Below are positions 1,711 to 50,350 of a stretch of 64,000 nucleotides of DNA, piece after piece. Every line of letters starts with the position of its first letter. Positions within the stretch are counted from its first letter, which is position 1. Made by a program: the position numbers and the translations under genes. Source of the DNA: Chloroflexota bacterium (GTDB taxonomy: Bacteria; Chloroflexota; Dehalococcoidia; SM23-28-2; RBG-16-64-32); NCBI GenBank assembly GCA_037441345.1, contig JBBISJ010000006.1, forward strand, positions 3,530 through 67,529, written 5' to 3'. A model generated the notes under the pieces. The model was given only the letters and a program-made list of their open reading frames with translations, did not search any database and had not been told where the DNA came from.

Positions 1711-3483
1711 TTGCCGATCCGAATCCTCCCCGCCGCCGTCGCCGCCCGCATCGCCGCCGGGGAGGTCGTCGAGCGCCCGGCTTCGGTAGCCAAGGAACTC
1801 GTCGAGAACTCCCTGGACGCGGGCGCCTCTGCCATCTCAGTGGAGATCGCAGCCGGTGGCACGCTGCTCATCCGCGTCACCGACGACGGCTGTGGCATCG
1901 AAGCGGACGAGATCGAGCGCGCGTTCGAGCGCCATGCCACAAGCAAGCTCGCGGACGACGCCGACCTCGAACGGATCCTCACGCTCGGTTTCCGCGGCGA
2001 GGCCCTGCCCTCGATCGCCGCCGTAGCCGATGTTGAGATCGTCTCCCGGCCGCTCGGAGCGGACGCCGGCGCGTTCCTCCGGCTTCGCGACGGCCTGCCC
2101 ACTGATTCCGGGAGCCGCGGCGCGCCCGTCGGCACCACCATCCGCGTCGAGAAGCTCTTTGAGCGGCTCCCGGCCCGCCGCAAGTTCCTTCGCTCCACCT
2201 CTGCCGAGACGAACGCCGTCGCCTCCGCTGTCAGCCACTACGCCCTGGCCTATCCCGAGGTCCGCTTCCGGCTCGTCGTGGATGGACGGCAGACGTTCCA
2301 CACGCCCGGAAGCGGCGACCTCCGCGACGCGGCGGCGGCCGTGTACGGACTGGATACGGCCGCCGCGCTGCTGGTCGTCGGCCTCGCGCGAGACGATCTC
2401 GACGGCCAGGGTGGCCCCGGCGCCAGCGTCTCCGGGCTGGCCGGCCCGCCGCACCTCTCGCGTGCCTCCCGCAACTACATCAGCCTCTTCGTCAACCGCC
2501 GCTGGATCCAGAACCGCCGCCTCGCTTTCGCGGTCGAAGAGGCCTACAGGGGGATGCTGATGGTAGGCCGGCACCCGGTCGCCATCTTGAACCTGAATGT
2601 TCCCTGCGGTGAGGTGGACGTGAACGTGCACCCGACGAAGGCCGAGGTGCGCTTCCGCGACGAATCGGCTGTCTTCGGCATCGTCCAGAAGGCCATCCGC
2701 GCCGCTCTCGTTGAGCATTCCCCGGTCCCGGCCGGCGCCCGCGAAGCAGCGACCATCGAACCTGTCCCAACGCTGAGCATGTCGCCTCTCCCCTGGTCGC
2801 CCCCGCTCTGGGAAGCCGCCGTACGACGGGAGGCCGCCGCGACGACCACCGGCAGCGTGGCCGGAATCGTCGATAACGACGGCGGGCCAGGCAGTGGCGC
2901 CACGATCGGCGAGGCGCTGCCGGTCCTCCGCGTAATCGGGCAGTTCGGCGGCGTCTACATCATCGCCGAGGGTCCGGACGGCATGTACCTCATCGACCAG
3001 CACGCTGCCCACGAACGGGTTCTCTACGAACGGTTCGCGTCAGCGCGGGCCCTGCAGTCGCCGGACGTGCAGGGCCTCCTCGAGCCCGTGGCGCTGGAAC
3101 TCCCGGCGCGTCAACGCGCCCTGATCGACACCGAGGGCGAATCCATGTCGGGCCACGGCTTCGAGCTTGAGCCGTTCGGAGAGGCGTCGCTGCTCGTGCG
3201 CGCCCTCCCCCGCGCCCTCGCCGCCGGCGACCTCCGCGAGAACATTGCGCGCTTTCTGGACGTGATGCTGGAGGAGGGGGAATCCGACGGGCGCGACCGC
3301 GTCGCCATGTCGCTCGCCTGCCACGGCGCTATCCGCGCCGGCAAGACACTGGCACCGGATGAGATGCGGGACCTCGTCCGCCAGCTCGAGGCAACCGAAA
3401 CGCCGCACACCTGCCCGCACGGGCGGCCCACGATGGTTCACGTCAGCGCAGAGATGCTGGCGAAGGGGTTCGGCCGGCGATAG
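1711..3483 (+). CDS. mutL: DNA mismatch repair protein MutL
   Basis: N-terminus [39 protein letters not shown] (GHKL ATPase); TTG start; a TACAAT -10-like hexamer about 22 nt upstream. Confidence 0.9.
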   Translation: [590 protein letters not shown]

Positions 3484-5116: not shown

Positions 5117-6160
5117 CTAGCTCAGCCCCATCTCCTGCTTGACGCCGGCCACCGCCTCGACCATGACGCGGAGCTTGTCTTCGCTCTCCTCGACGGTCCG
5201 CGTCTTGAGGCCGCAGTCGGGCAGTACCCAGATCCGCTCGGGGGGCAGACGCTTCAGCGTCCGCCGCAGCCCATCTTTTACCTCGTCAACGGTCTCCGTG
5301 AACCGGGTGTGCACGTCGGTCACGCCCAGCCCCAGGTCCTTGGCGTCGTCATAGCCAAACTCGTCGATCAGGTCAAGGTAGGCGAAATCAGTGTTCTTGA
5401 ACGCCAGATGGATCTGCTTCACGGGCAGCCGCAGCATCGCCGGGTAGATCTTCTCGACTTCGCCGTAGCAGATGTGCGTGTGGAACTCCGCGTCGATGCC
5501 GTCCACCGTGACGTGCATCGCCTCGACGGCCATGTCGAAGTCGGTGTCCGGGCGCGTGTGGATCGCGGGCTCGTCGATCTGGATGTACTTCGCGCCGGCC
5601 TCGACCAGCGCCTCGACCTCACGCCGGATCACCTTCGCCATGTCGAGCACTGCGTCGCGGCGCGACGGGTAGTGCTCGTCGAACGACCACTCCACCATCG
5701 TGTAAGCGCCGGTGAGCATCCCCTTGACCGGTCGCTCCGTCAGGCCCTGCGCGAACTTCCACATGTCGACCGTCATCGGCCCCGGCCACTCGAGCCGGTC
5801 GAAGATGATCGGCTTGTGATAGTAGCGATTGCCATACGAGCGCACCAGTCCACCCAGCTTCATCCCCTTGATCGGCGTCCCGCCCGGCTCCCCCGAGAAG
5901 TAAGCGACCATGTCGCCGCGCTCCATCTCGCCGTGGACGAGGACATCCAGGCCCACCTTCTCCTGGACGCGGATCCAGTACTCGGTCGCCTGCTTCTCCA
6001 GCCTGTCCAGCTCCTCGCGGCCGATCTTGCCCTGGGAGAACTCCGTGCGTGCCTTTGCCAGGTAGTCTGGCTTGGCGTAGCTACCGACGGCCGTCGTAAC
6101 GAGCGTCGTGGGCACGCCGCTCCAGGTCGTTGTTCGCCCGCTTGTCTGCTGTGTAACCAT
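5117..6160 (-). CDS. metE: cobalamin-independent methionine synthase, catalytic (C-terminal-type) domain protein
   Basis: Zn-binding motifs HTHICYGE and LPDCGLKTRT, plus IQIDEPA; about 347 aa, a single-barrel MetE-like protein. Confidence 0.8.
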   Translation of the reverse strand: MVTQQTSGRTTTWSGVPTTLVTTAVGSYAKPDYLAKARTEFSQGKIGREELDRLEKQATEYWIRVQEKVGLDVLVHGEMERGDMVAYFSGEPGGTPIKGMKLGGLVRSYGNRYYHKPIIFDRLEWPGPMTVDMWKFAQGLTERPVKGMLTGAYTMVEWSFDEHYPSRRDAVLDMAKVIRREVEALVEAGAKYIQIDEPAIHTRPDTDFDMAVEAMHVTVDGIDAEFHTHICYGEVEKIYPAMLRLPVKQIHLAFKNTDFAYLDLIDEFGYDDAKDLGLGVTDVHTRFTETVDEVKDGLRRTLKRLPPERIWVLPDCGLKTRTVEESEDKLRVMVEAVAGVKQEMGLS

Positions 6161-7134
6161 TACGCCGGCACTCCTTCCGCTCGCTTCGCGCCTTCCACGA
6201 GCACTTTCAGCTTCTCGAACGCCGTCTCCCGCGGCAGGTACTCGACGCCGCAGGACGGGTTGAGGTAGAGCCCGTCCGCTGGCACCAGGGCAGTCACACG
6301 CTCCACGGCGGCGGCGATCTGATCCGGCGTCTCGATCCTGGTGTTGCGTCCGTTAATCGCTCCGAACCCGAGCTTCTTGCCGAAACTCACCTTCGCCAGC
6401 GCCTCCCAGTTGGCCGGGCCAGCAACGAAGTCGAGTCCGATCACATCCGCCGGCGTATCGAGAAGCGCATCAAGAATACCCCCGCAATCGCCGAACCAGG
6501 TGTAGATGCCGGTCTCAGCGTTGACGCCGTCAAGCATCCGCGTCAGCGCGGCCGTGAACGTCCCCACCTGGTCCTTGTTCTTCACGATCATCGGATCGTT
6601 CACCTGGATGTGCGCGCAACCGGCGTCCACGAGGGCATCGATCTCGCTCCGCAGCGCCTCGGCATACGCCAGTGCCAGGCGGTTCCTGTCGTTATAGTGC
6701 TTGTCCAGCGAGAGGACAGCCAGCGTGAACGGGCCCGGCAGGATAGCCTTCACCGGGCGGCTGCTGTTCTCCTGCGCGAACCGCCAGTCCGCGGCGAGCA
6801 CCGGCTTCTGCCAGCCGATCTCGCCGACTACCTCTGGCTCGCGGAAGTAGGTGTTCGTATCCATGTACCGCTGCAGGCCGCCGATCTCGACGCCTTTGAA
6901 GTTGCGCGCGACATAAGTCTGGTCGTCGTCCCAGCGCACCTGGCCGTCCGTGATCACGTCGATCCCGGCGTCGATCTGCTCCTGGATCACCTCGATCGTG
7001 ACCTCGTTCCGCACCTGCTCGAGTTCTTCGTTGGAGAGCTCCCCGCGGTCGCGCTTGTTGATCGCATTGCGCAGCCGCGCCGGCCGGGGACGGTTTGGAA
7101 TTTTGGGATAGTTGCCTACGACTGTTGTCTGCAT
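6160..7134 (-). CDS. MetE N-terminal-domain-like protein (non-catalytic UroD/MetE barrel); its stop overlaps the start of the downstream metE-like gene
   Basis: MQTTVVGNYPKIP start, preceded by an AAGGAG Shine-Dalgarno 6 nt upstream; MetE-fold similarity but it lacks the His-x-Cys zinc motif (YTWFGDCGG, NPSCGVEY); the ORF in the track is extended to 7185 without support. Confidence 0.7.
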   Translation of the reverse strand: MQTTVVGNYPKIPNRPRPARLRNAINKRDRGELSNEELEQVRNEVTIEVIQEQIDAGIDVITDGQVRWDDDQTYVARNFKGVEIGGLQRYMDTNTYFREPEVVGEIGWQKPVLAADWRFAQENSSRPVKAILPGPFTLAVLSLDKHYNDRNRLALAYAEALRSEIDALVDAGCAHIQVNDPMIVKNKDQVGTFTAALTRMLDGVNAETGIYTWFGDCGGILDALLDTPADVIGLDFVAGPANWEALAKVSFGKKLGFGAINGRNTRIETPDQIAAAVERVTALVPADGLYLNPSCGVEYLPRETAFEKLKVLVEGAKRAEGVPA

Positions 7135-21986: not shown

Positions 21987-22016
21987 CGTAGGGGCGCGTC
22001 ATGATGCGCCCCTACG
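21987..22016. repeat. REP-like 30-nt palindrome, copy 1 (CGTAGGGGCGCGTCATGATGCGCCCCTACG)
   Basis: identical 30-mer also at 28657..28686; near-perfect inverted repeat. Confidence 0.8.
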
Positions 22017-24849: not shown

Positions 24850-24869
24850 TTCCACTCTCCACTCTCCAC

Positions 24870-25835
24870 TCACGGCACCATCACGACCCGCCCGAACGCC
24901 TGCCGGCTCTCGATGTACCGGTGCGCCTCAGCGGCCTCGGACAGCGGATATGTCCGGTCGATCACGACACGCAGCTTCCCATCGGCCACGTCGCGGATCA
25001 GGCCCTCGACCAGCGGCCGCCCGCGCATCGGCTCGAACATGAGAGAGCCGCCGAAGAACACGCCGGTCAGGGAGCGGTTCATCTCGCTCAGCTTGCCCAC
25101 GTCGAGAGCACGCGACTCCGAACGGCCGGCGTTACCCACGCTCACGATCCGCCCGTGGTAGGCCGTCGCGTCGATGCTCCCAAGCAGCGTCGTCCCCACC
25201 GAGTCTACGACGAGGTTGACGCCCCCGCCCGACGCCGCCTTCACCTTCGCCACCCAGTCGCCCTCGCGGTAGTTGATGCCGTGGTCCAGGCCGAAGTCCT
25301 TTAGCCGATCCAGCCTCTCGTCGCTCGACGCGGTCGCCAGCACCGTCGCACCGGCCTGCTTCGCCAGCTGGATCGCCGCCAGCCCAACGCCCCCCGCGCC
25401 GGCCTGGATCAGCACCTTCTCGCCCGCCTGCAACTTCCCGAACTCGAACAGGCAGTCGTGCGCAGTGCCGTACGCTATCGGCACGCAGGCCGCCTGCGCC
25501 GGATCCATGCCGTCGGGTACCGGAAACGTCTGCATTGCCGCCACGGCAACCCGCTCGGCGTGCGACCCAAACGGCATCACTGCCACGACCATCTGCCCCA
25601 CCTGCCGGTCGGTCACTGCCGAGCCGACCTCTCGAACGATGCCCGCACACTGGTAGCCGACGATGTGCGGCCTGGACGCCATCTCGCCACCCGCCCGATT
25701 CAGCACGTCGCCGCCCTCGATCGAGATCGCCTTCACGTCAAGGGCCACAGCCCCCGGCGCGCATTCCGGATCGGGCCTGTCCTCGTAGCGGAACACGTCG
25801 GGCGATCCGGTCTCATAGTAAACAGCGGCTTTCAT
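24870..25835 (-). CDS. zinc-type alcohol dehydrogenase / NADPH:quinone oxidoreductase (MDR family)
   Basis: MKAAVYYETGSPDVFRYEDRPDP N-terminus and a Rossmann GAGGVGLAAIQLAK. Confidence 0.8.
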   Translation of the reverse strand: MKAAVYYETGSPDVFRYEDRPDPECAPGAVALDVKAISIEGGDVLNRAGGEMASRPHIVGYQCAGIVREVGSAVTDRQVGQMVVAVMPFGSHAERVAVAAMQTFPVPDGMDPAQAACVPIAYGTAHDCLFEFGKLQAGEKVLIQAGAGGVGLAAIQLAKQAGATVLATASSDERLDRLKDFGLDHGINYREGDWVAKVKAASGGGVNLVVDSVGTTLLGSIDATAYHGRIVSVGNAGRSESRALDVGKLSEMNRSLTGVFFGGSLMFEPMRGRPLVEGLIRDVADGKLRVVIDRTYPLSEAAEAHRYIESRQAFGRVVMVP

Positions 25836-26894: not shown

Positions 26895-28652
26895 ATGCCT
26901 GACCTCCAATCCCTCCCCAAAGACGAGCGCCTCGAGCGCATGCGTCACTCCGCCGCCCACATTATGGCCGAGGCCGTCCTCGAGATGTTCCCCGAGGCGA
27001 AGCTCGGCATCGGGCCGCCCATCGACACCGGCTTCTACTACGACTTCGACCTCCCCCGCGCGCTCTCAACCGACGACCTGCCGGAGATCGAGGAGCGCAT
27101 GCGCCGGCGCATCGAGTCCGACGCGGCGTTCCAGCCGTCCACCATCACCAGGGACGAGGCTCGCGCCATGTTCGCCGACCAGCCGTACAAGATCGAGCTG
27201 ATCGACGAGATCCCCGAGGACGAGGAGATCGGCCTCTACCGCCAGGGCGAGTTCGTCGACCTCTGCCACGGCCCCCACGTCAGCACCTGCGGCCAGGTGC
27301 CGGCCTTCAAGCTCATGTCCGTCGCCGGCGCCTACTGGCGCGGCAGCGAGGACCGGCCGATGCTCCAGCGCATCTACGGCGCCCTCTTCGACACGCAGGA
27401 GGAGCTGGACGAGTACCTCCACAACCTGGAGGAAGCGCAGCGCCGCGACCACCGCCGCCTCGGCCGGGAACTCGACCTCTTCTCCTTCCACGAGGACTTC
27501 GGCCCCGGCCTCGTCTACTGGCACCCAAAGGGCGGCCGCGTCCGCACGATCATCGAGGACTTCTGGCGCCGCGCCCACTTCGACGCCGGCTACGACCTCG
27601 TCTACACGCCCCACATCGGGAAGTCCACGCTCTGGCAGACGAGCGGCCACCTGGACTTCTACAACGAGAACATGTACTCGGCGATGGATATCGACGGGCA
27701 GGACTACTACGTCAAGCCGATGAACTGCCCCTTCCACATCCAGATCTACAAGAGCGACGTCCGCAGCTACCGCGACCTCCCTATCCGCATGGGCGAGCTC
27801 GGCACCGTCTACCGCTACGAGCGCTCCGGCGTCCTCCACGGCCTCCTGCGCGTCCGTGGCTTCACCCAGGACGACGCCCACATCTTCTGCCGCCCGGACC
27901 AGGTCCGCTCGGAGGTCGAGCGCTGTGTCGACTTCATGATGTTCTTCCTCGGAGCCTTCGGCTTCGAGAAGTTCCACGTTTACCTCTCCACCCGCGACCA
28001 GGCCGGCAAGTGGGCCGGCTCGCTCGAGGACTGGGACATGGCGACGAACACCCTCCGCGACGTGATCGAGGACCGCAAGCTGCCCTACGACGTCGACGAG
28101 GGCGGCGCGGTCTTCTACGGGCCCAAGATCGACGTCAAGATGATCGACGCCATCGGCCGCGAGTGGCAGTGCACCACCATCCAGTTCGACTTCAACCTGC
28201 CGGAGCGGTTCGACGTCAGCTTCATCGGCGAGGAAGGCTCGCGGCAGCGGCCGTTCATGGTCCACCGGGCACTGCTCGGCTCCATCGAGCGCTTCTTCGG
28301 CGTGCTCGTCGAGCACTACGCCGGCGCCTTCCCGATGTGGCTCGCGCCCGTCCAGGCGTCCGTCATCCCCATCGCCGACCGCCACATCCCCTACGCCGAC
28401 GAGGTCGCCGCCGAGCTGCGGGCCGCCGGCCTGCGCGCCGAGGTCGACGCCCGCAACGAGCGGATGCAGGCCAAGATCCGCGACGCCCAGCTCCAGAAGG
28501 TGCCGTACATGCTCGTTGTCGGCGACCGCGAGGCCGAGGCCCGCGCCGCCGCCGTCCGCCTCCGCTCAGGCGAGGACCTGAAGGCCCTGCCCGTGACGGA
28601 GATCATCGCCCGCATGCAGGCCGAGGCCGCCGTCCAGGAGTTCCGGGCCTAA
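26895..28652 (+). CDS. thrS: threonine--tRNA ligase (short form lacking the N-terminal TGS domain)
   Basis: editing-domain HSAAHIMAEAV, class II motifs (FRYERSGVLHGLLRVRGFTQDDAHIF) and the anticodon-binding C-terminus. Confidence 0.9.
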   Translation: MPDLQSLPKDERLERMRHSAAHIMAEAVLEMFPEAKLGIGPPIDTGFYYDFDLPRALSTDDLPEIEERMRRRIESDAAFQPSTITRDEARAMFADQPYKIELIDEIPEDEEIGLYRQGEFVDLCHGPHVSTCGQVPAFKLMSVAGAYWRGSEDRPMLQRIYGALFDTQEELDEYLHNLEEAQRRDHRRLGRELDLFSFHEDFGPGLVYWHPKGGRVRTIIEDFWRRAHFDAGYDLVYTPHIGKSTLWQTSGHLDFYNENMYSAMDIDGQDYYVKPMNCPFHIQIYKSDVRSYRDLPIRMGELGTVYRYERSGVLHGLLRVRGFTQDDAHIFCRPDQVRSEVERCVDFMMFFLGAFGFEKFHVYLSTRDQAGKWAGSLEDWDMATNTLRDVIEDRKLPYDVDEGGAVFYGPKIDVKMIDAIGREWQCTTIQFDFNLPERFDVSFIGEEGSRQRPFMVHRALLGSIERFFGVLVEHYAGAFPMWLAPVQASVIPIADRHIPYADEVAAELRAAGLRAEVDARNERMQAKIRDAQLQKVPYMLVVGDREAEARAAAVRLRSGEDLKALPVTEIIARMQAEAAVQEFRA

Positions 28653-28656
28653 CACC

Positions 28657-28686
28657 CGTAGGGGCGCGTCATGATGCGCCCCTACG
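28657..28686. repeat. REP-like 30-nt palindrome, copy 2, immediately after the thrS stop
   Basis: identical to 21987..22016; may serve as a thrS transcript-end hairpin. Confidence 0.8.
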
Positions 28687-29168
28687 CCCATCATGGACCT
28701 CTGTCGAAGCCCTTCAGGCCCGTTGGGGACCGCATTCCGCCCATCCTGAGGACCGCAGCATCTCGAAGGGCCGTCATTCCCGCGCAGGCGCCTGCCCGCC
28801 TTGTGAGGGGGAATCCATGGCTCAATCAGAGGGGATTTATACCCGCCGGTTGATTGTGTTTTCGCGGTCAGGTTCAGTCTTTGATTGTGCCGCGGCTGAA
28901 TAATTGCTTTTCTCGCGACAGGCCGGGCGTTTTGTGTCTGCGGGGCCGGTGAGGAACACCCTCGCTGTTTGATTGCCTCCGATCCATGGGCGTGACCCGG
29001 AGGATTCAATTCGAGCGGCGGTCTTGCTGGGCAGGGAGCATGTGGGCATGAGAGCATCGTAACGGAGGGGCGGGGCGATCTCCGAGGGGGAAGTGGCGCG
29101 GGCGGGTGAACGGGAGCCTGGCCCCGGCGGCCGACCCCACCGTCATTCCGGCGAAAGCCGGAATCCCA

Positions 29169-29330
29169 TCACGTGCCATTGGCGCCTGGTGACTCGTCCG
29201 CATCCTCACCGATAGCCCCCACCCAGGCCCTCGCGGTGCTCCAAACGCGCTTGACCAGGTCGCTCGTCACTCCCGTGTACAGGGTGCCGTTGCGCTTGCT
29301 GGCCATGATGTAGACGAACGGCTGTTTGTC
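29169..29330 (-). pseudogene. GIY-YIG nuclease (UPF0213/YhbQ-like) remnant, frameshifted and truncated
   Basis: PFVYIMASKRNGTLYTGVTSDLVKRVW (GIY...YIG) in frame; the expected continuation EHREGLGGGYR is in the +2 frame and then hits a stop; no ATG start. Confidence 0.45.
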
Positions 29331-29440
29331 CAATGCAGGCCAATCGTCATTGATTCCGGCCCTGCAGGCCCGTTGGGCGTTCGCCGGAACGACGGAATGG
29401 CACGAATAAGCTGAACGGGGTGAGGGCAGCCTGCCGGGTC

Positions 29441-29542
29441 GCTGGCTCCCTGGCTGCTGGCTCCTGGCTCCCGGCTCCCGGCTCCTCGGCTCCTGGCTCC
29501 TGGCTGCTGGCTCCTGGCTGCTGGCTCCTGGCTGCTGGCTCC
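29441..29542. repeat. tandem heptanucleotide repeat (GGCTSCY) x ~14
   Basis: GGCTCCT/GGCTGCT/GGCTCCC units are contiguous; translation of this repeat explains the QQPGASSQEP low-complexity N-terminus of ORF 29169..29597. Confidence 0.85.
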
Positions 29543-29623
29543 TTCCGTTTGATGGCGCCCAAACGCCTGTGCTATTATCCGGACATAGCAGTGACATCAG
29601 CCATTACCAAGGGGAACTAGACT

Positions 29624-30214
29624 ATCGCCCGCGAGCTTCGCACGAACGAGCGGATCCGCGCGCGCGAAGTCCGCGTCATAGGAGCGAACGGGGAAAACTA
29701 CGGCGTTATCCCCTTCTCCGAGGCGATGAACCGGGCCAGGGAAACCGGCCTTGACCTCGTGGAGGTTGATGCCAACGCGAACCCTCCCGTCTGCCGGATA
29801 CTGGACTACGGCAAGTTCAAGTACGACCAGGCGAAGAAGGAGCGCGAGGGACGCAAGCACCAGAAGGGGACGATGATCCACGAGGTGCGCCTCCGCCCCC
29901 GGACGGGACAACATGATATCGACCTGAAGGTACGGATCGCCGGCCGGCTGCTGGCGGAAGGCGACAAGGTGAAGCTCTCCGTCATGTTCAGGGGCCGCGA
30001 GATGTCTCACCCAGAGGTGGGCCAGGAAGTGCTGGACAAGGCGCTGGCCGGGCTTGGAGACCTGGTGAGCGTCGAGAAGCCGCCCGGCATGGAGGGCCGC
30101 TTCCTGACGGTGATCCTGACGCCGAACGCGAAGAAGCCAGTGGCCGCGAAAGCGGCGGTGGTGGAGGCAGCGCCGGAGGCGGAACCAGAGAAGGCAGAGG
30201 AAAAAGTTGGCTAA
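29624..30214 (+). CDS. infC: translation initiation factor IF-3, with a non-AUG (AUC) start
   Basis: ...ERIRAREVRVIGANGENYGVIPFSEAMNRARETGLDLVEV...; an in-frame TAG lies at 29618-29620, so the N-terminal domain must start at ATC 29624, 8 nt after an AAGGGG SD; the first ATG (29726) would delete the N-domain. Confidence 0.75.
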   Translation: MARELRTNERIRAREVRVIGANGENYGVIPFSEAMNRARETGLDLVEVDANANPPVCRILDYGKFKYDQAKKEREGRKHQKGTMIHEVRLRPRTGQHDIDLKVRIAGRLLAEGDKVKLSVMFRGREMSHPEVGQEVLDKALAGLGDLVSVEKPPGMEGRFLTVILTPNAKKPVAAKAAVVEAAPEAEPEKAEEKVG

Positions 30215-30871: not shown

Positions 30872-30946
30872 GGGGCAGTACCTCAAGGGTAGAGGATCAG
30901 TCTTATAAACTGACGGTTGCGGGTTCGAGTCCTGCCTGCCCCACCA
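30872..30946 (+). tRNA. tRNA with anticodon UAU (tRNA-Ile, AUA-decoding type), CCA encoded
   Basis: acceptor GGGGCAG paired with CTGCCCC, D-stem CCTC/GAGG, anticodon stem TCAGT/ACTGA with loop CTTATAA, T-arm GCGGG-TTCGAGT-CCTGC, discriminator A. Confidence 0.7.
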
Positions 30947-49689: not shown

Positions 49690-49734
49690 AGGTTGGATGG
49701 TCCACAGATGACACGGATGACTCAGACTTGCGAT

Positions 49735-49812
49735 GTGAACAGTAGCGTATCGGAACAATGGAACAGTAGAACAATGCCGTCCTGTTCAATTCTTCTATTG
49801 CTCAACTGTTCC
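49735..49812. repeat. GAACAAT 8-bp-periodic array, locus B (GGAACAAT GGAACAGT AGAACAAT then TGTTCAAT TCTTCTAT TGCTCAAC TGTTCC)
   Basis: three direct octamers followed by four inverted-type octamers; lies between purC and the PPOX-family gene. Confidence 0.65.
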
Positions 49813-50283: not shown

Positions 50284-50350
50284 GTGGAACAATAGAACAA
50301 TGGAACAACTGAACAATTCTGCATCTATTCAATTGTTCGACTGTTCAATT
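50284..50350. repeat. GAACAAT 8-bp-periodic array, locus C (GGAACAAT AGAACAAT GGAACAAC TGAACAAT TC...TTCAATTG TTCGACTG TTCAATTG)
   Basis: four direct octamers, a 10-nt spacer, then three inverted octamers; contains the GAACAATT-N12-AATTGTTC palindrome. Confidence 0.7.

Follow-up and report, generated by a model that had tools for sequence, protein, structure and literature searches.

Debris of an apparent Ssn nuclease cassette, a REP palindrome and a heptamer microsatellite in the thrS–infC spacer of a Dehalococcoidia genome

The 971-bp spacer between thrS and infC (28653–29623) is very probably a patchwork of selfish-element and gene-decay debris, bounded by the end of thrS on one side and by a promoter of infC that is independent and conserved on the other. 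In the same joint judgement, the core of the spacer (29141–29404) is very probably a single decayed SRM-ssn-SRM cassette. Ssn proteins are single-domain, site-specific ssDNA nucleases flanked by inverted hairpins, referred to as NTS or SRM (Chenal et al., 2025, Nat Commun, PMC11893778). It is directly shown what the spacer parts are, that they have decayed, that relatives lack them and that the infC promoter is conserved. The contents are ordinary genomic debris of known kinds and no new element, since the broken Ssn cassette, the REP and the microsatellite all lie upstream of an intact infC promoter.

Composition of the spacer

The window, i.e., the whole 64,000-nt stretch of DNA that was analyzed, has a GC content of 65% and originates from a member of the Dehalococcoidia (Chloroflexota). 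The thrS stop codon ends at 28652 and the ATC start codon of infC is found at 29624. The original prediction of an expanded, non-coding spacer of ∼970 bp filled with repeat and nuclease debris held for every feature on its list, as all of them could be located in the sequence. The same sequence is found in the other assembly of this genome, GenBank GCA_034434195.1, where the contig breaks within the heptamer array. The features of the locus are as follows.

26895–28652, plus strand: thrS (ThrRS, 585 aa; Pfam tRNA_SAD, tRNA-synt_2b and HGTP_anticodon), left border of the spacer
28657–28686, no strand assigned: REP-type palindrome with GTAG head, GTAGGGGCGC-gtcatgat-GCGCCCCTAC, with 15-nt arms, 5 nt after the thrS stop
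28709–28727, plus strand: free-standing copy of the 19-nt repeat GCCCTTCAGGCCCGTTGGG, 18/19 identical to 29359–29377
28772–28817, plus strand: orphan SRM/NTS hairpin with a loop expansion of 18–23 nt, CGTCATTCCCGCGCAGGCG-cctgcccgccttgtgagg-GGGAATCCAT, with no nuclease gene after it
28818–29072, no strand assigned: segment of lower GC content in the composition profile (∼57% vs. 65% for the window) that contains TTGATTG three times
29073–29107, plus strand: tentatively, a remnant of a small Cys-rich ORF (5′ end; blastn, 84% over 37 nt to relative L008)
29141–29168, plus strand: intact SRM/NTS hairpin, CGTC-ATTCCGGC-GAAA-GCCGGAAT-CCCA, the inverted 3′ hairpin of the cassette
29169–29225, no strand assigned: filler of 57 unrelated bases in place of the lost 3′ part of ssn, leading to the inverted hairpin
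29226–29334, minus strand: putative ssn pseudogene with TTG start, codons ∼1–37 and a 1-nt deletion (frameshift) after ...KRVW
29350–29394, minus strand: 5′ SRM/NTS hairpin, loop-expanded, CGTCGTTCCGGCGAAC-gcccaacgggcctgcagg-GCCGGAATCAAT, 15 nt upstream of the ssn start
29395–29404, minus strand: 10 conserved nt just outside the 5′ hairpin, GTGCCATTCC, from the alignment with locus L082
29442–29543, no strand assigned: heptamer microsatellite (CTGGCTC) × 14.3 (TRF score 144, 86% matches)
29549–29578, plus strand: predicted infC promoter with −35 TTGATG, 18-nt spacer and extended −10 TG-c-TATTAT, from a promoter scan
29624–30214, plus strand: infC (IF3; ATC start after AAGGGGA; Pfam IF3_N and IF3_C), right border of the spacer

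The palindrome behind thrS folds as DNA with −15.1 kcal/mol (z = −5.8). An identical 30-nt copy is found 6.7 kb away at 21987–22016, with 0 expected by chance. Both copies are intergenic, with GTAGGGGCGC...GCGCCCCTAC at 28658–28685 and 21988–22015. Given the GTAG head, the near-perfect palindrome and the intergenic repetition, it belongs to the GTAG-class REPs and has no relation to the GIY-YIG cassette. The REP-like palindrome that had been noted in the spacer is therefore real, but it is a separate GTAG-headed element located outside the cassette. At most, it could serve as a 3′ stabilizer or attenuator for the thrS mRNA.

The array predicted to hold 14 heptamer copies has 14.3 copies of CTGGCTC. 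Another heptamer array of the window, TCCACTC at 24851, has three copies in one assembly and four in the other, and over 5.6 kb the two assemblies differ in this copy number only.

The segment of lower GC content (28818–29072, ∼255 bp) gave no match in Rfam, Pfam or the plasmid collection, and nothing was found in Pfam for six short ORFs within it. A blastn search of 28818–29139 against the plasmid collection was likewise without match, and the segment has no significant match to the genes in the spacers of the relatives.

The GIY-YIG remnant and its hairpins

The hairpin motif GTCATTCC...GGAATCC together with the GIY-YIG debris represents a decayed copy of the published Ssn system. The predicted decayed GIY-YIG gene with a frameshift to EHREGLGGGYR-stop is present on the minus strand and scores above the cut-off of Pfam PF01541 (23.2 bits, cut-off 22.6). 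A profile made from 79 homologues matched only 29229–29330 in six-frame translations (profile positions 2–35, E = 2e-16). The remnant shares 25 of 34 residues (74%, E = 2e-18) with the 94-aa SsnA orthologue of Neisseria gonorrhoeae, which was taken from a gonococcal chromosome mislabelled as a plasmid in PLSDB. The sequence places the remnant among the Ssn nucleases, which are specific for sites in ssDNA, and the flanking hairpins are its NTS/SRM sites.

Only the N-terminal third of Ssn is left in the window, i.e., ∼37 of ∼95 codons. The nearest relative at the DNA level is locus L082 (82% nt identity over 139 nt), and alignment with this homologue showed that one C is absent after GTTTGG and that the window has a TTG start codon where L082 has ATG. 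The single missing C accounts for the frameshift to EHREGLGGGYR-stop. Homology to both L082 and the Ssn proteins ends at GAGGGCCTGG, near 29226, and ∼180 nt of the 3′ part of ssn are gone. The two cassette hairpins are accordingly 182 nt apart, as opposed to ∼300 nt in intact units. The gene would thus have been inactivated in three ways, by the ATG to TTG change of the start codon, the 1-nt frameshift deletion and the loss of ∼180 nt at the 3′ end. The window copy does not encode an intact single-domain ORF of the Ssn type (about 94–100 aa) and, because of the frameshift and the ∼180 nt loss, represents a pseudogene of the family rather than a working member. Ssn-type cleavage of ssDNA cannot apply to this truncated copy.

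Using the family profile, no second Ssn fragment was found in the spacer, including the region downstream of the orphan hairpin at 28772, or in the rest of the window. NCBIfam has no model for the family of the remnant and Pfam yields the generic GIY-YIG domain only. A PDB search returned one distant match, UPF0213 (1zg2, E = 8e-4), plus spurious WD40 rows. The suggested search for intact copies was productive, as homologues are abundant and intact genes of ∼95 codons are found in metagenomic loci.

The original prediction had proposed that the spacer is the scar of a mobile element, possibly a free-standing homing endonuclease. The outline proved right as regards the non-coding debris, the dead GIY-YIG gene, the hairpin repeats and their restriction to this lineage, but the identity of the element has to be revised. 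Homing of a classical free-standing GIY-YIG endonuclease (like I-TevI or Seg) into the thrS–infC region would explain the GIY-YIG domain and the weak, sub-threshold similarity to the model of group-I-intron endonucleases, TIGR01453. This similarity amounts to 17–22 bits against a cut-off of 56, however, and the close homologues are all single-domain proteins of 94–101 aa without a DNA-binding module. The inverted NTS/SRM hairpins around the gene are moreover a signature of Ssn, as is the 74% identity to the gonococcal SsnA. We regard a homing endonuclease as extremely unlikely. Membership of this class was rejected, as there is no DNA-binding domain and TIGR01453 stays below its cut-off.

Three copies of the hairpin motif could be identified in the 64-kb window, all of them in the thrS–infC spacer and none elsewhere. 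The intact copy at 29141–29168 has an unpaired CGTC head, a stem of 7–8 bp, a short loop and a C directly 3′ of the stem, which are the defining features of NTS/SRM hairpins. It scores 36.1 bits with the covariance model R1 (E = 6.5e-10) and folds as DNA with −9 kcal/mol (z = −4.4). This copy was confirmed as the source of the spurious IPAFAGMT peptide, which is the translated hairpin within the ORF 29006–29209. The split copy that had been placed at 28764–28810 is real but lies at 28772–28817, and its fold equals that of shuffled sequences (z = −0.4). The prediction of just two copies does not hold, since a third, loop-expanded copy at 29350–29394 had been missed. This copy scores 11.1 bits in the covariance model and aligns to the L082 hairpin except for an 18-nt insert in the loop. 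A 20-nt inverted repeat (90%) connects the intact hairpin with 29376–29395. As the third copy is located 5′ of the gene and inverted relative to the intact copy, the ssn remnant is bracketed by inverted SRM/NTS hairpins on both sides, a layout that it shares with dozens of intact loci.

The two loop-expanded copies have kept head, stem and tail, but their loops are 22–23 nt long with 18-nt inserts and they fold no better than shuffled sequences. The two predicted copies of the 13-mer CAGGCCCGTTGGG are exact. They are the only two and belong to the direct repeat of 19 nt (18/19 identical), whose second copy (29359–29377) forms part of the third hairpin's loop. No match in the spacer was obtained with the published SRM string, HGTCWYN(0-2)YYVSBRHN(0-5)WNVSBRGN(0-2)RNCYNB, which thus missed all three copies. 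The intact hairpin fails at the final position only, since its tail reads CCCA instead of CCAG and ends in A, whereas the string calls for B.

We surveyed the hairpins in 80 metagenomic loci that encode close homologues of the remnant. A hairpin of 27 nt with the form GTC-ATTCCCGC-GAAA-GCGGGAAT-CCAG is found upstream of the gene in 61 of the 80 loci, ending 6–36 nt before it. The consensus of these sequences, GTCATTCCCGCGAAAGCGGGAATCCAG, equals the published Neisseria Transformation Sequence (NTS), which is defined as CGTCATTCCCGCGMAVGCGGGAATCYRG (PMC11893778). For the closest homologue of the remnant, P0001, the hairpin has even been translated as VIPAQAGIH in the annotated N-terminus. Two-sided changes were seen in seven of the eight stem pairs. 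The fraction of paired cells was 98%, compared with 17–53% when the partner column was slid, a figure that is partly circular because the sequences were chosen for pairing. Our own loose regular expression for the hairpin gave ∼0.2–0.4 hits per kb in the control loci (GC-rich DNA) and was too noisy, so a covariance model was adopted instead. The model returned 297 matches in 188 kb of ssn loci vs. 4 in 654 kb of control loci.

In the arrangement that recurs, a hairpin on the plus strand is followed by a gene (median 96 codons) and by a minus-strand hairpin ∼300 nt from the first. An intact cassette measures ∼355 nt and consists of a 27-nt CGTC-headed hairpin, 10–30 nt, an Ssn gene of ∼95 codons and, immediately after it, the inverted hairpin. 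Some loci, e.g., L134, contain arrays with dozens of alternating hairpins, and the gonococcal SsnA orthologue is found amid 10 covariance-model hits in 1,079 bp. Hairpins with nested loop inserts, as in the window, are present in six loci. According to PMC11893778, loop extensions of the hairpin are tolerated by the Ssn enzyme.

Locus L082 belongs to a Dehalococcoidia-like genome, as seen from its tetranucleotide composition and the named homologues of the neighboring gene, and its cassette is frameshifted too. The 82% DNA identity of this cassette to that of the window at an unrelated locus is a hint of mobility. A second hint is that the two are homologous from GTGCCATTYC onward, 10 nt beyond the 5′ hairpin.

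The infC promoter and the site in relatives

The thrS–infC site was compared among species representatives with ThrRS 69–82% identical to that of the window; the ThrRS of the window is 75–82% identical to those of Dehalococcoidia. The gaps between the two genes range from ∼0.3 to 2.7 kb in these relatives and differ in gene content.

L003, ∼300 bp: small Cys-rich ORF only
L005, ∼340 bp: a CGTC-type hairpin pair plus the vestige of a gene for a biotinyl carrier
L002 and L008, 2.2–2.7 kb: PNPOx-like gene, UbiA-like gene and small Cys-rich ORF
L006 and L007, 2.2–2.7 kb: accC and biotinyl carrier

Such variation in size and content makes the site a variable region in this clade and not a tight operon junction. 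The tight linkage of thrS and infC assumed in the original prediction does not apply here, with gaps of ∼300, 340, and 2200–2740 bp in the closest relatives. Upstream of the infC promoter, blastn found nothing that the spacer of the window has in common with any relative. None of the relatives examined has an ssn gene at the site. The proposed alignment across relatives showed that the spacer content is lineage-specific but did not yield a clean empty site.

Homology to the relatives resumes at the infC promoter, with TTGATG, 17–18 nt, TG-n-TAxxAT, a GGAG-like RBS and an ATT/ATC start. The promoter is conserved in L003, L008, and L002. Based on the promoter scan and this conservation, infC is predicted to be transcribed independently from this promoter. 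The heptamer array stops 5 nt short of the −35 box, and all other debris is likewise upstream of it. The idea that the debris sits inside an operon leader is thereby contradicted.

This arrangement also bears on the possibility that the spacer is a functional structured leader, in which the hairpins or the heptamer array control infC, possibly in a phase-variable manner by slippage. The position of the array so close to the −35 box, the variation of heptamer copy number in this population and the stable fold of the intact hairpin would fit such a role. Yet a change in array length would leave the −35/−10 spacing unaltered, only one of the three hairpins folds better than shuffled sequences and the coding remnant indicates a dead gene. 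Nor is the spacer upstream of the promoter conserved in any relative, and an Rfam search over the spacer gave nothing at the gathering threshold and nothing credible at E below 5. Control of infC by the spacer is, in our estimation, very improbable. A known thrS/infC/rplT leader RNA was rejected, with no match to an Rfam family and no conservation of the spacer in relatives. A thrS operator or leader was rejected too, since nothing upstream of the infC promoter is conserved. Most likely the debris has no present-day function; the intact hairpin could at most be cleaved by an Ssn encoded elsewhere in the genome.

Another explanation is that the spacer is mainly the residue of deleted ancestral genes between thrS and infC, with the Ssn cassette as an old resident and not a recent insertion. 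Relatives do hold 2.2–2.7 kb of genes at the site, the 340-bp spacer of L005 retains its visible biotinyl-carrier vestige, and the window has the possible vestige of the small Cys-rich ORF at 29073–29107. This ORF, which in L002, L003, and L008 is located just upstream of the infC promoter, is absent as such from the window, and the score of the 37-nt match was reached by 5 of 300 shuffled sequences (p about 0.02). Apart from this weak blastn match, searches with the intervening genes of the relatives (tblastn, tblastx) gave only noise and no significant similarity, and the lack of an ssn gene at the site in any relative also argues against an old resident. We consider gene deletion as the main origin unlikely, although it complements the best explanation and is compatible with it rather than exclusive.

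Returning to a patchwork with a decayed cassette at its core, we infer the order of events (insertion or deletion), since the nearest relatives have ThrRS of 75–82% identity and different spacer contents. The cassette, or a cluster of its hairpins, may have entered a variable intergenic site and then decayed. Its entry would have replaced most of the small Cys-rich ORF found upstream of infC in relatives. The heptamer microsatellite may have expanded beside the cassette through replication slippage, and the GTAG-type REP presumably landed separately behind thrS. The window cassette occupies the place of the small conserved ORF upstream of infC, which is a further hint of mobility.

A correct annotation of the locus would list SRM hairpins, a REP and a microsatellite along with the ssn pseudogene, and two ORFs should be masked as spurious, i.e., the 142-aa ORF at 29169–29597 and the one giving the IPAFAGMT peptide. 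Beyond correct annotation the spacer has little significance, but three small points are of value. They concern the phylogenetic range of the Ssn/SRM cassettes, the link between two bodies of literature and a hint of movement.

Comparison with known systems

SsnA of Neisseria meningitidis is a 94-aa single-domain GIY-YIG protein (cd10448, GIY-YIG_unchar_3), which binds the hairpin solely as ssDNA and cleaves a few nt 5′ of it (PMC11893778). Ssn homologues number in the thousands, mostly flanked by Ssn-related motifs (SRM), and most of them are found in the Gram-negative Pseudomonadati (PMC11893778). The window resembles these systems in the N-terminal identity to the gonococcal orthologue and in the order of hairpin, gene and inverted hairpin. 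Its intact hairpin has the CGTC head, the 8-bp stem, the 4-nt loop and the C after the stem as seen for NTS. It differs in that the gene is a pseudogene with ∼37 of ∼95 codons, in its host, a member of the Dehalococcoidia, and in the CCCA tail of the hairpin. An expansion of hairpins was also not seen in the 64-kb window.

Already in 2013, hairpins of this kind were listed as family CGTC-1 of the CGTC-tagged REPs (Di Nocera, De Gregorio, and Rocco, BMC Genomics, PMC3733652). They were found in five phyla, Chloroflexi not among them, and were concluded to be without a dedicated transposase (PMC3733652). The hairpins of the window and of the surveyed loci share with them the unpaired CGTC head, the short stem, the 4-nt loop, the CCA-like tail and the frequent head-to-head pairs. 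CGTC-tagged REPs and NTS/SRM hairpins are the same objects. The association with ssn came later and the Ssn paper (PMC11893778) does not cite the 2013 REP paper (PMC3733652). Our analysis therefore links two mutually uncited papers, in that the "enzyme-less" CGTC-tagged REPs are the recognition hairpins of Ssn nucleases. It also places Ssn/SRM cassettes in the Dehalococcoidia (Chloroflexota), beyond the five phyla of the 2013 CGTC list.

The palindrome behind thrS is like the GTAG-tagged REPs in its GTAG head, its perfect stem and its identical recurrence in the window. The SRM-ssn-SRM arrangement may be seen as analogous to REPtrons, where a RAYT gene lies between inverted REPs, a likeness pointed out by the Ssn authors themselves (PMC11893778). 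Unlike in REP/RAYT systems, the protein tied to the CGTC hairpins is a GIY-YIG nuclease and not an HUH tyrosine transposase. The NTS-ssnA-NTS layout has been likened to an insertion sequence, with mobility as a hypothesis only (PMC11893778). That two Dehalococcoidia genomes carry closely related, decayed cassettes at different loci is a hint of movement as a unit. That SRM-ssn-SRM cassettes are mobile, as the GIY-YIG counterpart of the REP/RAYT "REPtron", and active in Dehalococcoidia is a speculative proposal which we think is rather less likely to be right than wrong. Direct evidence of cassette mobility would come for the first time from a filled and an empty site in this lineage.

Finally, the locus retains the gene order of the E. 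coli-type thrS-infC-rpmI-rplT operon and an infC with an atypical AUY start codon. Unlike in that operon, thrS and infC are 0.3–2.7 kb apart in this clade, with variable content between them and what appears to be a conserved promoter of its own for infC.

Cassette relatives and SRM hairpins

The nearest relative of the decayed ssn cassette in the thrS-infC spacer of the window is found at positions 3001–3335 of L082, a Dehalococcoidia-like metagenomic locus on another contig. Its gene is likewise broken by a frameshift, giving one ORF of 64 aa and another of 47 aa, and both known cassette copies of this lineage are thus decayed. The orthologue of SsnA (a single-domain GIY-YIG nuclease) and its NTS field were taken from Neisseria gonorrhoeae (L164, NZ_CP119140.1), a 2.17-Mb chromosome that is entered in PLSDB as a plasmid.

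Hairpins resembling SRMs, the CGTC-headed hairpins that flank ssn genes, also occur in the closest relative of the window (L002), about 0.9 kb beyond the end of infC and near the rplT-side end of the locus. They form a head-to-head pair at 6366–6391 (+) and 6471–6496 (-), with the sequences GTCATCCTGTC-CGCA-GACAGGAT-CTGG and GTCATTCTGGC-CGCA-GCCAGAAT-CTGG. The SRM hairpin class is therefore present elsewhere in the clade of the window.

The infC region of the window and its relatives

The closest relatives (L002, L003, and L008) have a small ORF directly upstream of the infC promoter, encoding a Cys-rich product of about 60–76 aa with the pattern CxxC...ARGSRF[YI]LC...YP..PVL.C.GY. The window lacks this ORF. 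These three loci start infC with the usual ATT, whereas ATC is the apparent start in both the window (29624–29626) and the related locus L005 (about 6063). At its start, the thrS-infC spacer of L005 has two CGTC-type hairpins arranged tail to tail (GTCATTGCGAGG...GAAGCAATCTCG), and it also contains an out-of-context vestige of a biotinyl-carrier gene that is intact in two further relatives, L006 and L007. Between rplT and pheT, the window encodes a tRNA-Ile with a UAU anticodon, which is uncommon in bacteria, as AUA is usually read by a lysidine-modified CAU tRNA.

L002 4443–4673, L008 4002–4220, L003 about 5220–5395: conserved Cys-rich small ORF
L005 5755–5835 and 5870–6000: CGTC-type hairpin pair; biotinyl-carrier vestige
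Window 30872–30946, + strand: tRNA-Ile, anticodon TAT

Tandem repeats of the window

The heptamer TCCACTC (24851–24871) has three copies in the window vs. four in the other assembly of the same genome (GCA_034434195.1). As this is the sole difference across 5.6 kb, it is a microsatellite polymorphism within the population. Two octamer arrays lie about 520 bp apart.

Window 49733–49776 and 50285–50317: octamer arrays, GGAACAAT (or GAACAATA)

SRM arrays and the CGTC-tagged REPs

SRM loops with inserts of 20–40 nt, often small palindromes themselves, recur among unrelated loci and may have arisen either by targeted insertion into the loop or by extension of the stem.

L097, L111, L133, L137, L138, and L154 (metagenomic ssn loci), upstream hairpins: SRMs with loop inserts
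Window 28772–28817 and 29350–29394: SRMs with loop inserts

The metagenomic locus L134 carries a very dense array of SRM hairpins (200–2310), more than 40 within 2.4 kb, alternating between the plus and minus strands beside ssn genes, and very dense arrays of alternating strand are also seen near the ssn genes of L122, L158, L106, and L100. These arrays are reminiscent of BIME-like REP clusters. The same hairpins have been described twice, in the 2025 Ssn paper (PMC11893778) and in the 2013 paper on CGTC-tagged REPs (PMC3733652), which the former does not cite. According to the 2013 paper the CGTC REPs have no dedicated enzyme, a statement that Ssn appears to answer.
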